A stretch of DNA of 32,000 bases from assembly GCA_001695645.1 (NCBI GenBank), contig LVZN01000001.1, positions 1 to 32,000 on the forward strand, read 5' to 3'. Shown here piece by piece: positions 1-14,505 of the stretch (position 1 is the first letter of the stretch; each line of letters opens with the position of its first letter). The notes under the pieces were generated by a model. The model made no database searches, was not told the DNA's origin, and worked only from the letters and a program-made list of their open reading frames with translations. The stretch comes from Erysipelotrichaceae bacterium MTC7. GTDB lineage: Bacteria > Bacillota_I > Bacilli_A > Erysipelotrichales > Erysipelotrichaceae. The translations under genes and the position numbers were made by a program.

Positions 1-1100
1 AAGAAGGATTTGAGGTCCTTATGGATCGCTACAATGAGCTCAAAGAAAACAGTGGTCACGAAGTGATGTTTATCTTTGAATCTACCGGGGTGTATCACAA
101 AGTGATTCAACACTTCTTGGAAGAAAAAATCGCAAGAAATTTATTATGATTAGTCCATTACAGTCTGCAAAGGTGCGCAAGTTGGATCTAAGAGCTGCAA
201 AAACTGATAAATTGGATCCAATGTATATCGCTAAAGCGTACTATATGTTGGATATCGATATAAGTGTCAAGAAGCAAGAGGTGTATGATGAGTTGATGCA
301 GTTGGATCGTTATTATGAAGCGCAGTTAACCTCACTAACAAAGGCTAAAGTACATTATCGAGAGAGTCTCGATTTAGTATTCCCTAGACTTGATGAACAT
401 TTCGATGTATATGATCCTTGTGTTGTATTGATGATCCAAAAGTATAAGCATCCTGAGAACATACAGCGCAAAGAAGTGAAAACTGTGATTGACTATTTAA
501 CTAAAAAGAATTCACATAGAAAAGCATATTTGCAGTCATTTGCAATCACTTTTATTGATTACTGCAAGGATTGTATGAGTGGATGTAGCATGAATGATAT
601 AGCAATCGACATTCTTTTAGGTCATCTAGACAGTGTTGAACATTTTCAACAGAAAGTTGATTACACATTCAAACGAATGAGAGAACTTGCTAGAAGCCTT
701 AAGCAATACGAGCAATTAATAAGTATCCCAGGAATTGGTGAAATCTTAGCAACAAGACTGATTGCAGAGATTGGTGATATGGATCGATTTGATTCCCATA
801 AACAGCTAATTGCATATGCTGGCATAGAACCTATTATCTATCAATCTGGAAAGAAGGATGGAATGCATTATCGGATGAGTAAAAAAGGAAATAAAATACT
901 GCGCAAGTTATTATATTTAGCCATTACTTGTAGTCTTAGAAGCAAAACACAAGATAACAAAATCAAAGAATATTACCAAAAGAAAAGACAACAAGATAAC
1001 CCAATGTATTATCTCGCTGTCTATTTCGCCTGCGCCAATAAATTACTACGAATAATTTATGGCATGTATAAATCGAATTCGATTTATCAATAACCAGGTC
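1..1100 (+). mobile_element. IS110-family insertion sequence. The 5' end is cut by the window edge and the 3' boundary is approximate.
   Basis: The transposase reads in two frames. Frame 3 (3..149) gives EGFEVLMDRYNELKENSGHEVMFIFESTGVYHKVIQHFLEEK, the DEDD N-terminal domain with an ESTGxYH motif. Frame 2 (146..1093) gives the Transposase_20-type C-terminal domain (IPGIGEILATRLIAEIGDMDRFDSHKQLIAYAGIEPIIYQSGKK...SKKGNKILRKLLY). Confidence 0.8.
146..1093 (+). pseudogene. IS110-family transposase, the part downstream of the frameshift. The N-terminal part lies in another frame at 3..149.
   Basis: ORF track plus manual translation of 3..149. Adding one A to the A6 run at 124..129 gives a continuous ...HFLEEKNRKKFIMISPLQSAK... 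reading frame, which matches the usual IS110 layout (YH..L....G..V.VVNPL). Confidence 0.7.
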
Positions 1101-1117
1101 CATTATAACACTTTTCT

Positions 1118-1138
1118 AAAAAAACTGACATAGTTCAG
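1118..1138. terminator. Weak hairpin with flanking A and T runs. Possibly a bidirectional terminator between the IS110 element and hsdR.
   Basis: ctgacatagttcag (CTGA/TCAG stem) is preceded by aaaaaaa and followed by gattttt. The stem is only 4-5 bp. Confidence 0.3.
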
Positions 1139-1215
1139 GATTTTTAGTGTGATGAAATATCATAGAATGATTTTTTAATATTATACTTGATTTTTATTAA
1201 CTAATTTTTTGTTGG

Positions 1216-12689: not shown

Positions 12690-12779
12690 TACGGTAATAT
12701 GTCATACTGACCGGAGGTATCAATGCCAAAGGTCAGCATAAATTACCGCTTGAAGGCTGTCGGAAAGGAGCTAAAAATT

Positions 12780-14432
12780 ATGAATAGACAGCCTAATATG
12801 AATGCAGCCATTGGAGAGAAAATCACAGCACTTTATTGCAGATTATCCCGTGATGATGAACTTCAAGGTGACAGCAACAGTATCAAGAATCAAAAAGCAA
12901 TTTTACAAAAATACGCTGAAGATAACGGATTTAGAAACCTTCACTTCTTTGTTGATGATGGTTTCAGTGGCACTAATTTTGATAGACCGGATTTCCAAAG
13001 AATGATAGCTGAGATGGATGAGGGTAATGTTACCACCATTATTGTAAAAGATATGTCTAGACTGGGCAGAGATTATCTGAAAGTCGGCTATTACAATGAG
13101 GTAGCATTCCCGGAGGCAGATGTAAGATTTATTGCCATTAACAATGGTGTGGACAGTGCAAATCAGCAAGATAGTGATTTTACCCCATTTCTCAATATCA
13201 TCAACGAATGGTATGCCAAGGACACAAGTAAGAAAATAAGAGCGGTGTTCAAAGCAAAGGGAGAATCGGGTAAACCGCTCTGCACCAATCCACCCTATGG
13301 ATATGTGAAAGACCCACAGGACAAACTGCACTGGGTAATTGATGAAGAAGGGGCTACTGTGGTAAAAGAAATCTTCCACCTTTGTATGCAAGGCTTGGGT
13401 CCAACGCAGATTGCAAAGGAACTGACGAAAAGGAAAATTGAAAACCCTGTGGCTCATGGAAAAAGAAATGGAATCAATGTCCCAGCTCAACAGGAGCATG
13501 ATGATCCATTTATTTGGAGAACCTCAACGATTGCAAGAATGCTCACAAGACAGGAATATCTTGGACATACAGTAAATTTCAAAACTAAAAGAAAATCTTA
13601 TAAGCAAAAGAAACAATTAAAGAATGACCAGTCAGAATGGAAAATATTTAAAAATACACATGAAGCTATAATTGATGAGGAAACCTTTAAAATAGTGCAA
13701 CGTATTAGAGATGGCAGACGTAAAGTTTCAAGGCTTGGAGATATGGGTATTCTTTCTGGAATGATGTTTTGTGCCGACTGTGGTAATAAGCTGTATCAAG
13801 TTCGTGGTAAAGATTGGGAGCATGATAAGGAATATTTTGTTTGTGCCACTTATCGTAAAATCAAAGGGGGTTGCAGTTCCCACCAAATCAAGAATGTTGT
13901 GGTAGAGCAACTATTATTACAGGATTTACAGCGTGTGACAGCGTTTGCAAGGGAACATGAAGACGAATTCTTGCAGGTTATTACAAGCAATTCCGAGAAG
14001 GAATTGAACAAGGAACTCAAAGATAGCCACAAAGAATATGAGCAGGCAATGGCTCGTATCAACAAGCTGGATACCATTATCCAAAGGCTTTATGAAGATA
14101 ATGTGGAAGGCAAAATCAGTGATGAGCGTTTTATGAAAATGTCTGCTACATATGAATCGGAGCAAAGGGAACTCAATGCCCGTGTGACTGCCTTGCAGGA
14201 CTTCATTGACCACGCAAAAGAAAAATCCCTCAATGCTGAACACTTCTTGTCATTGGTCAGAAAGTACACAGACATCAAGGAATTGGATGCCGAGATTATT
14301 CGAGAGTTTGTTGAAAAGATAATCGTATTTAAAGCTGAAAAGATTGATGGTCACAGGACACAGCGTATTCAAATTATTTACAACTGTATCGGAGCAGTGG
14401 AACTTCCGAGCAAGCAAGAAAAAACGGCATAG
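12780..14432 (+). CDS. Large serine recombinase (TnpX/TndX type, with a DUF4368-like C-terminal domain)
   Basis: Resolvase catalytic domain ([23 protein letters not shown] with catalytic Ser; [11 protein letters not shown]). Recombinase domain and zinc ribbon (CADCGNKLY...FVCATYRK). C-terminal coiled coil ([19 protein letters not shown]). The start was moved to the ATG at 12780 because of a GGAAAGGAG RBS. The ORF-track start is 12723. Confidence 0.92.
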
Positions 14433-14460
14433 CCGATTGTTACGACTATGCCGAATTTTT
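14426..14460 (+). terminator. Hairpin overlapping the recombinase stop codon, followed by a T run
   Basis: GGCATAG-13 nt loop-CTATGCC followed by gaattttt. The large loop makes this weak. Confidence 0.35.
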
Positions 14461-14505
14461 CAAGGGAATAAAATCCCTAAGACGCACCCTCTAAGTGCGC
14501 TTTCT

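Follow-up and report, generated by a model that had tools for sequence, protein, structure and literature searches.

A phage-satellite-like integrative element with a lone HK97-type capsid gene represents a family found mostly in gut Bacillota

How might an integrative element be transmitted when its only virion gene encodes a capsid protein? This question is raised by a region at the start of contig LVZN01000001.1 of Erysipelotrichaceae bacterium MTC7 (assembly GCA_001695645.1), of which we analyzed the first 32,000 nucleotides (hereafter referred to as the window); the region occupies positions 1–14,505. An original prediction, made from the sequence letters, had described a compact integrative element with replication and integration functions of its own, one virion gene and a defense cargo. 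Profile libraries (Pfam, PHROGs, NCBIfam and PADLOC), applied to six-frame open reading frames (ORFs), agree with the gene order and positions that it had given (Table 1), and the description as a whole stands, since the backbone recurs elsewhere and the relatives are bounded. As predicted, no ORF of 1094–14505 matched a terminase, portal, protease, tail or relaxase family in these libraries, and no lysis family was matched in the element. The region is most likely a chromosomal copy, about 13.4 kb long, of a phage-satellite-like integrative element in a Breznakia-like host of the Erysipelotrichaceae. We think it rather probable that the element is a helper-dependent satellite, likely working like SaPIbov5, a Staphylococcus aureus pathogenicity island (SaPI) of the cos (cohesive-end site) type. 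Its satellite-like features are an integrase of its own, terminal repeats in the relatives, an empty site, a primase-helicase of its own, and the lack of a full set of virion and lysis genes.

A search for the module in other genomes, which had been proposed along with the prediction, retrieved more than 90 related loci with variable cargo; the family-wide counts given below refer to 97 capsid-family loci. The shared gene order is helix-turn-helix (HTH) regulator, P4-type primase-helicase, 69-amino-acid (aa) protein (orf69), capsid, TnpW and large serine recombinase. This backbone synteny recurs, with the cargo swapped, in dozens of independent loci of many taxa, which argues that the arrangement is not due to chance. 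The hosts belong to the Clostridia, Erysipelotrichia and Bacilli and are mostly gut Bacillota. For instance, plasmid pPM400 of Bacillus badius, a distant blastn match, carries the HTH, primase, capsid, TnpW and recombinase genes together with a type III restriction-modification (RM) system and an AAA ATPase as cargo. The contigs of close relatives (capsid 77–91% identical) have the same architecture among different flanking host genes, and their cargo is type I RM of another family, sometimes accompanied by Fic or DUF3644 genes. In the family as a whole, the cargo is either type III RM or type I RM of one of two families. The order 'primase, small ORFs, capsid, recombinase' was seen repeatedly among 80 IMG/VR loci. 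At E ≤ 1e-10, a database search gave 1557 relatives of the capsid protein, and the best 120 listed are nearly all 310–317 aa long. A scan of a genome collection with the single capsid protein as the query was too narrow and gave two loci only. Look-ups of the exact recombinase, capsid and one tagF-type protein gave no match, so that the collection searched does not contain the source genome. Homologs of the large terminase subunit (TerL), portal and protease, searched for with queries from two reference phages, were found in 0 of the 97 family loci.

The complete relatives are 12.6–17 kb long (about 12.6 kb in L086, 13.4 kb in the B. badius pPM400 element, 13.6 kb in the L008 type, 14.5 kb in L003 and 17 kb in L106), have terminal inverted repeats of about 20 bp, and lie at differing sites. 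That the region might be a mere fragment of an enclosing prophage or integrative and conjugative element is ruled out for the family by these bounded units, and is unlikely for the present copy.

The capsid protein matched TIGR01554 (E = 1.1e-68) only from position 80 of the 385 in the model. Closest to it among phage capsid proteins are those of streptococcal Javan phages and gut Ca. Heliusvirales, which are 35–38% identical to it and about 395 aa long, and the genes of which come after portal and protease genes. The match begins near residue 96 of the phage proteins, which have about 95 extra N-terminal residues; therefore, the capsid protein of the element corresponds to the mature form without the N-terminal delta (scaffolding) domain. 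The ORFs neighboring the capsid gene matched no scaffold family. The gene is under purifying selection and is not decaying: its ratio of nonsynonymous to synonymous substitution rates (dN/dS) against relatives is 0.06–0.18, and an alignment of 15 members has 68 invariant columns. Foldseek searches with a structure model of the protein matched capsids of a gene transfer agent (E = 1e-16), of capsid-forming phage-inducible chromosomal islands (cf-PICIs) and of HK97. The preceding orf69 is likewise under purifying selection (dN/dS 0.12–0.22 against relatives), and its homologs occur in many family loci, sometimes in two copies. No phage homolog of orf69 was found, and only 37 clusters among 1.84 billion representatives matched it. 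A single-sequence structure model of orf69 was of low confidence (predicted local distance difference test score, pLDDT, 63) and was not used.

The 223-bp gap between orf69 and the capsid gene holds a 95-bp non-coding block that is highly conserved in relatives. Searches with blastn located this block in true phage genomes at 74–80% identity (E down to 5e-9), namely those of phages Javan191, 102, 105, 108 and 112, several Heliusvirales, Terrisporobacter TPDSL_ph1 and Gardnerella vB_Gva_AB1. In the phages it lies directly upstream of a gene for a P27-type small terminase subunit (TerS; 29–35 bits against a cut-off of 24.7), and in four phage records annotated with an HNH endonuclease, the HNH gene comes just before the block. 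The exact 19-base core of the block occurs once in the window and never in shuffles. A hidden Markov model (HMM) of the block, used with nhmmer, gave 99 matches, which fall in most of the 97 capsid-family loci and usually lie upstream of the capsid gene. At least 118 IMG/VR stretches contain the block. In 65 of the 79 that we examined, terS starts 105–236 nt downstream of the block on the same strand, and many of those stretches also hold TerL, portal, protease and full-length capsid genes. TerS has been kept in eight family loci, at 42–57% identity to phage TerS; in L069 and L071, the block is separated from the capsid gene by a gene for a 178-aa small terminase of the P27 family. HNH–cos–TerS is a layout known for HK97-type cos phages, as Quiles-Puchalt et al. 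2014 is cited in PMC5052747, and the block is therefore most simply read as a putative cos region. The paper on the Heliusvirales makes no mention of satellites or cos.

The block is common to phages of Bacillota and Actinomycetota (Gardnerella vB_Gva_AB1), whose proteins diverge far more, and it may represent a cos or late-control sequence that phages share very widely. Loci L004, L016, L017, L019, L023, L026, L033 and L040 have two blocks, mostly inverted around the capsid gene, or one inverted block downstream of it. A structured RNA within the block was considered and rejected: Rfam gave nothing relevant, single-sequence folds were no better than those of shuffles, RNAalifold with 46 sequences yielded essentially no consensus structure, and covariation in two hand-drawn helices was not above controls. 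The phage-sized IMG/VR contig 3300016725_000289 (63.5 kb; L188, L228) has one block in a stretch of head genes and another about 1 kb upstream of a primase gene, the product of which is 50% identical to the primase of the element. It was not supported as a helper–satellite pair; the second block stands before the primase gene in what is apparently a phage.

SaPIbov5 is an island of about 14 kb with the cos site of phi12 and no terS, and its Ccm protein is a capsid homolog that forms the pentamers of T=4 heads, the remainder being helper protein (PMC5052747, PMC8569155). SaPIbov5 and SaPIbov4 resemble the element in their size, in having integration and replication genes of their own, in lacking portal, protease and tail genes, and in their lone HK97-fold capsid homolog. 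If the element works in a similar manner, its recombinase, aided by TnpW as a directionality factor, would excise it as a circle, and the primase-helicase would replicate it from the control region. The block would be a copy of the phage sequence between the HNH and small-terminase genes, and the helper's terminase would recognize it and cut the element DNA there; alternatively, the block might place the capsid gene under the helper's late control. The delta-less capsid protein, which is not expected to self-assemble, would co-assemble with the capsid protein, scaffold, portal and protease of the helper, and the resulting small heads would have room for about 13 kb; Ccm of SaPIbov5 acts in this manner with phage phi12. 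Helper tails would then finish the particles, and the RM operon would be carried to new hosts. The size range of 12.6–17 kb fits T=4-type heads, as for P4 and SaPIs. A relative recorded as MT838964.1 (capsid 57% identical) has the block and an Xis gene; its metadata match a Mexican fecal virome of DNase- and chloroform-treated particles, although the connection between this accession and the study is one that we infer. This relative was possibly encapsidated.

The likeness to SaPIbov5 is not complete. The island carries a helper cos, whereas the element has a phage terS-upstream block with a putative cos role; Ccm has 355 aa including a cleaved 87-aa delta domain, whereas the capsid protein of the element has 312 aa and no delta domain. 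SaPIs employ a tyrosine integrase and stl/str regulation and carry virulence genes, whereas the element has a large serine recombinase with TnpW, only a Cro/CI-type HTH regulator, and RM as its cargo. In addition, the SaPI family was absent from a sequence search of solved structures, and the SaPI1 capsid ranked only 47th in the fold search; by sequence, the capsid protein of the element and Ccm are not closely related. On the strength of these comparisons, the element most likely works like a cos-type SaPI but is not a member of the SaPI family.

Several points weigh against the proposal of a helper-dependent satellite. Helper dependence, excision, replication and packaging are all processes that we infer, and no helper prophage is visible in the window. 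With a delta domain present in Ccm and absent here, assembly may differ from that of SaPIbov5, or the protein may only interfere with the helper. The structure model of the capsid protein is moderately confident (mean pLDDT 63). The block could be a late promoter or late-operon control region instead of cos, and in a minority of loci it lies inverted downstream of the capsid gene or occurs twice. Among the loci fetched by that stage of the analysis, there were no circular (terminal-repeat) contigs. Finally, the left terminal repeat (CTTAGGGATTT...) and the subterminal motif of the relatives are absent from the whole window, as judged by pattern and HMM searches. With these points taken into account, the comparison of the family still supports the predicted existence of a distinct, probably helper-dependent, class of elements in Bacillota.

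The integration module offers grounds for a different interpretation. Many family loci combine TnpW with a TnpX-type enzyme; other loci have a serine recombinase only about 25% identical to that of the window, and still others have a Tn916-type Xis and a tyrosine integrase. The capsid–primase core thus also occurs with Tn916-type Int/Xis, so that the recombinase is an exchangeable part. In the tyrosine-integrase variants, Xis occupies the slot of TnpW, and it is this position that makes TnpW a candidate directionality factor. The recombinase shares its domain set, including DUF4368, and its pairing with TnpW with Tn4451, Tn4453 and Tn5397, and the family integrates at many sites. The element could accordingly be viewed as a Tn4451/Tn4453-like mobilizable transposon (integrative mobilizable element) that moves by conjugative mobilization, with a captured phage capsid gene that is unrelated to transfer or has no role in it. 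We consider this unlikely. Neither the element nor the Pfam-annotated relatives gave a match to a Mob/relaxase or any other gene for conjugation, and the TnpZ Mob, TnpV, TnpY and resistance cargo of the Tn4451 family all have no counterpart in the element, which instead possesses primase-helicase and capsid genes as well as a block of phage packaging-region DNA; it does not belong to that family. Further arguments against a mobilizable transposon are that the capsid gene and orf69 are under purifying selection, that the block is linked to the capsid gene family-wide, that TerS is present in eight loci, and that the core also occurs with Int/Xis. For TnpX/TndX elements, a GA junction core has been reported, whereas the core here is apparently AA; circular excision is expected by analogy with them.

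It is also conceivable that the region is a defense island, in which the delta-less capsid protein serves as an anti-phage decoy that poisons HK97-type head assembly and the element is not packaged. A delta-less HK97 capsid protein is not expected to self-assemble, as established for HK97 gp5, and this would suit a decoy. Ccm cuts the titer of phi12 10^3- to 10^4-fold (PMC5052747, PMC8569155), and the element carries a further defense in its RM system. However, known satellites combine interference with piracy, and the tight range of 12.6–17 kb, the block, TerS in relatives and the element's own replication and excision modules point to transfer, making a decoy without packaging quite unlikely.

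Very unlikely, in our view, is an autonomous 'mini' HK97 entity or encapsulin-like compartment, in which the lone capsid protein would build a shell free of any helper. A precedent for such an entity may be seen in the human-gut 'twilight-zone' contigs of a 2025 preprint, which are about 9 kb long, assemble as circles and encode a lone HK97 capsid, a scaffold, an integrase, RepA and sigma factors but no portal, terminase or tail; the preprint relates them to encapsulins and names a satellite lifestyle as a possibility (bioRxiv 10.1101/2025.06.18.659913). It does not describe the serine-recombinase/TnpW backbone, RM cargo, terminator targeting and terS-upstream block of the present family. The sole Pfam match of our protein is Phage_capsid, with no encapsulin family, and the neighbors of its gene are orf69 and TnpW, with no cargo enzyme. 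There is no delta domain and no recognizable scaffold or cargo partner, DNA would have no entry route without a portal and a terminase, and the block and the TerS of relatives imply that a phage terminase is used. A decayed prophage with capsid, primase and integrase genes left over by chance would explain the phage-like capsid and primase genes and the IS110 gene abutting this copy, but it is extremely improbable, because the same compact, inverted-repeat-bounded gene set is found at many sites in many taxa, its core genes are intact and under purifying selection, and the capsid proteins of the family are uniformly about 310–317 aa long.

Comparison with other satellites places the element outside the described groups. 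It resembles phage-inducible chromosomal islands (PICIs) in its size class, in the divergent regulator beside the primase-helicase, in integration at specific sites, in the absence of lysis and tail genes, and in its defense cargo. Classical PICIs, however, have tyrosine integrases and usually terS or capsid-remodeling genes, with no capsid gene, and cf-PICIs encode every part of a head module (TerS, TerL, portal, protease, capsid and connectors), whereas the element has the capsid gene only and is thus not a member. The original prediction that the element fits no described type was right with respect to Tn4451 and cf-PICIs, but it had overlooked the precedent of SaPIbov5, with its cos site and Ccm. 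The PICI-like elements (PLEs) of Vibrio cholerae are satellites that use a large serine recombinase. P4 makes small T=4 heads and is packaged via the helper's cos site; its primase-helicase and that of the element belong to one family (TIGR01613). Unlike the element, PLEs and P4 have no capsid homolog, and their heads are resized by external scaffolds (TcaP and Sid). No homologs of PLE- or P4-specific genes were found in the element.

If packaged by helper phages, these elements would constitute a major satellite family in gut anaerobes, for which, to our knowledge, no satellite has been characterized so far. The phages that we regard as candidate helpers come from lineages that are among the most prevalent in the gut. 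A lone capsid homolog combined with a helper packaging site is experimentally known from one small group of staphylococcal islands (PMC5052747, PMC8569155); if our reading is true, this strategy would be general, workable with a delta-less capsid and independent of the integrase type, and the elements would provide a concrete means by which near-identical RM systems spread widely. With the block and the terminal repeats as sequence handles, the elements as well as their helpers can be searched for in a simple way. We found no paper that unites TnpW or DUF4368 with a capsid gene or describes this element family. We give about even chances to the broadest form of the proposal: a very large undescribed satellite family, mostly of gut Bacillota, which exploits widespread block-bearing HK97-type phages (among them Ca. 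Heliusvirales and streptococcal Javan-type phages) and is characterized by a copied packaging site, a delta-less capsid that co-assembles with helper parts into small heads, exchangeable recombinases, terminator targeting and the shuttling of RM between distant lineages.

To return to the ends of the element, alignment of the relatives downstream of the recombinase stop codon showed about 55 conserved bases ending with AAATCCCT(A/T)AG..GCaCCC, beyond which the flanks diverge. The left ends of the relatives were recovered through contigs encoding their HsdR. In these ends, the right-end repeat occurs inverted at about 115 bp beyond the final cargo gene, and a GCTTGAAG.TGT motif precedes it. On both sides, the flanks of the relatives read outward as halves of terminator hairpins; therefore, the elements sit in the loops of intrinsic terminators. 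An empty site was found on contig L183 (10.2 kb), which we identified by an exact match of the tagD-type protein. Its identity to the window is 98.9% between window positions 19447 and 14493, where the homology stops, and on this contig the 148-aa ORF is followed directly by mutY with the terminator intact (L183 5055–5304). The sequence of the empty site, AAAAAGCCCACCG-AA-GTGCGCTTTCTT, is a bidirectional terminator, and the window reads ...AAATCCCTAAGACGCACCCTCT-AA-GTGCGCTTTCTTT at the right junction, which this comparison therefore places at 14492/14493. The crossover core is likely the AA dinucleotide at 14493–14494, and the present copy appears to be inserted between the 148-aa ORF and mutY, in the terminator. 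At 14483–14510, the terminal GCACCC of the element mimics the displaced stem half, such that a terminator hairpin is rebuilt at the junction; the same pattern of rebuilt terminators was seen in relatives at unrelated sites.

The predicted right boundary of 14505 is thus to be corrected by the empty-site comparison, whereas the switch to housekeeping teichoic-acid genes at 14506 was confirmed, with the 148-aa ORF followed by tagF/tagD-type and ABC genes. The comparison with a near-identical strain, also proposed with the prediction, fixed the right junction but did not find the left one. The left boundary of 1094 is not demonstrated: the end repeat and the subterminal motif are missing as described above, and the mutY-side flank (terminator half ...AAAAAGCCCACCG) is absent from the window as well. 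A left boundary near 1131–1146 (TTCAGGATTTT) was considered and rejected, as it has only a weak likeness to the repeat and neither the subterminal motif nor the host flank. The place expected for the left end is occupied by the IS110 copy, which is not part of the backbone; therefore, the left junction lies beyond IS110 or has been lost. The IS110 gene is split by a frameshift near 146 (its N-terminal piece being in another frame) and runs off the start of the window. The copy had no match in a plasmid collection. The IS110 insertion may replace or displace the left end and make this copy unable to excise. IS110-type elements often target hairpin-like sites, and the insertion may have occurred in the terminator at the left attachment site (attL).

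The HTH gene had been predicted to be divergent from the RM operon. It is in fact the first gene of that leftward operon, with a 29-bp overlap with hsdM, and is divergent from the primase gene only. As it precedes varying cargo in the relatives, type I RM in L005, L008 and L093 and type III RM in B. badius, the HTH gene belongs to the backbone and not to the cargo. The operon includes R, M and S subunits and thus a complete type I RM system, according to Pfam and PADLOC. The RM family of the window is mostly metagenomic and without the backbone, only 2 of 80 loci having both, which fits its status as cargo. Homologs of the GNAT gene (49–53% identity) have the same place between hsdS and hsdR in L111 and L118, two RM loci in which no backbone genes are seen; therefore, the GNAT gene travels with the RM module. 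The spacer between the HTH and primase genes, called repeat-rich in the prediction, is so only in a weak sense, with two or three imperfect direct repeats of 15–34 nt (8161–8194, 8221–8254 and 8336–8350). Its DNA is closely conserved with L003 and partly with L005 and the L008 type, and it is a probable candidate for the replication origin. A 65-aa ORF within it (8097–8294) was rejected as a gene: the DNA is conserved, but the product is of low complexity, basic and without a family match.

The relatives L005, L008 and L003 encode a 1047-aa HsdR that is at least 89% identical across several taxa: Lachnospiraceae, Oscillospiraceae, Anaerovoracaceae, Zhenpiania, Clostridium polysaccharolyticum, and a record named Campylobacter geochelonis. 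This distribution suggests recent cross-phylum spread or contamination of the C. geochelonis record. In L008, L009, L010 and L095–L097, the primase-helicase is split into pieces of 270 aa and 291 aa, with the start not called, while the capsid, TnpW and recombinase genes are intact; it may be that copies impaired in their replication genes persist or are complemented. In the IMG/VR relative L042, a head-tail adaptor gene (4848–5162; Ad1-like, 64% identical to that of a Heliusvirales phage) directly follows the capsid gene, and the virion gene complement therefore varies within the family.

Table 1. Features of the element and its surroundings in the window
Feature	Position	Strand	Matches and remarks
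IS110-family transposase gene	3–1093	+	Pfam DEDD_Tnp_IS110, Transposase_20; NCBIfam transpos_IS110 from model position 77
Junction between IS110 gene and hsdR stop codon, 122 bp	1094–1215		Without canonical left terminal repeat
HsdR, type I restriction subunit (cargo)	1216–4116	-	Pfam HSDR_N, ResIII, SWI2_SNF2, T1R_D3-like; PADLOC REase_I
Small GNAT-like acetyltransferase, 130 aa (cargo)	4293–4685	-	Weak Pfam Acetyltransf_1/7
HsdS, type I specificity subunit (cargo)	4689–5927	-	Pfam Methylase_S; PADLOC Specificity_I E = 4e-91
HsdM, type I methyltransferase (cargo)	5924–7669	-	Pfam N6_Mtase, HsdM_N; PADLOC MTase_I E = 6.9e-262
Cro/CI-type HTH regulator (backbone)	7641–7886	-	Pfam HTH_26; PHROG repressor families
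Divergent control region, 613-bp spacer, probable replication origin	7887–8499		Conserved non-coding DNA, imperfect repeats
Prim-pol/D5-type SF3 helicase	8500–10812	+	Pfam NrS1-1_pol-like_HBD, D5_N, DUF5906, Pox_D5
69-aa ORF (orf69)	11068–11277	+	No family match; conserved, specific to the element family
95-bp non-coding block, putative cos/packaging site or late-operon control region	11284–11380	+	Homology to phage terS-upstream DNA
HK97-fold major capsid homolog, 312 aa	11501–12439	+	Pfam Phage_capsid (PF05065) E = 2.8e-64
TnpW-family small protein, candidate recombination directionality factor	12462–12689	+	Pfam TnpW E = 3.8e-13
Large serine recombinase, TnpX/TndX type	12723–14432	+	Pfam Resolvase, Recombinase, Zn_ribbon_recom, DUF4368; PHROG_95 integrase E = 2.9e-100
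Right terminal repeat AAATCCCTAAGACGCACCCTCT and host junction	14471–14494	+	Conserved after recombinase gene in relatives
148-aa ORF, then teichoic-acid genes	from 14506	-	Two tagF-type glycerophosphotransferase genes, tagD-type cytidylyltransferase gene, ABC-transporter pair

In addition to the matches listed in Table 1, the primase-helicase matched PHROG_1829 DNA primase (E = 2e-159) and TIGR01613, the C-terminal domain of P4-family primases. The G+C content is 42–43% in the backbone at about 8.5–11 kb, against about 35–37% in the flanking chromosome. The remainder of the window is ordinary chromosome with teichoic-acid genes, a two-component system, SmpB, transfer-messenger RNA (tmRNA) and RNase R. 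SmpB is 100% identical to that of Erysipelotrichaceae bacterium MTC7 and 98–99% to that of Breznakia, which identifies the host as Breznakia-like within the Erysipelotrichaceae. The tmRNA gene (27842–28222; tag peptide GKNKLSSFFGANQSMALAA) adjoins that of SmpB (28243–28689) and, with RNase R at 29858–31954, forms an ordinary housekeeping cluster.

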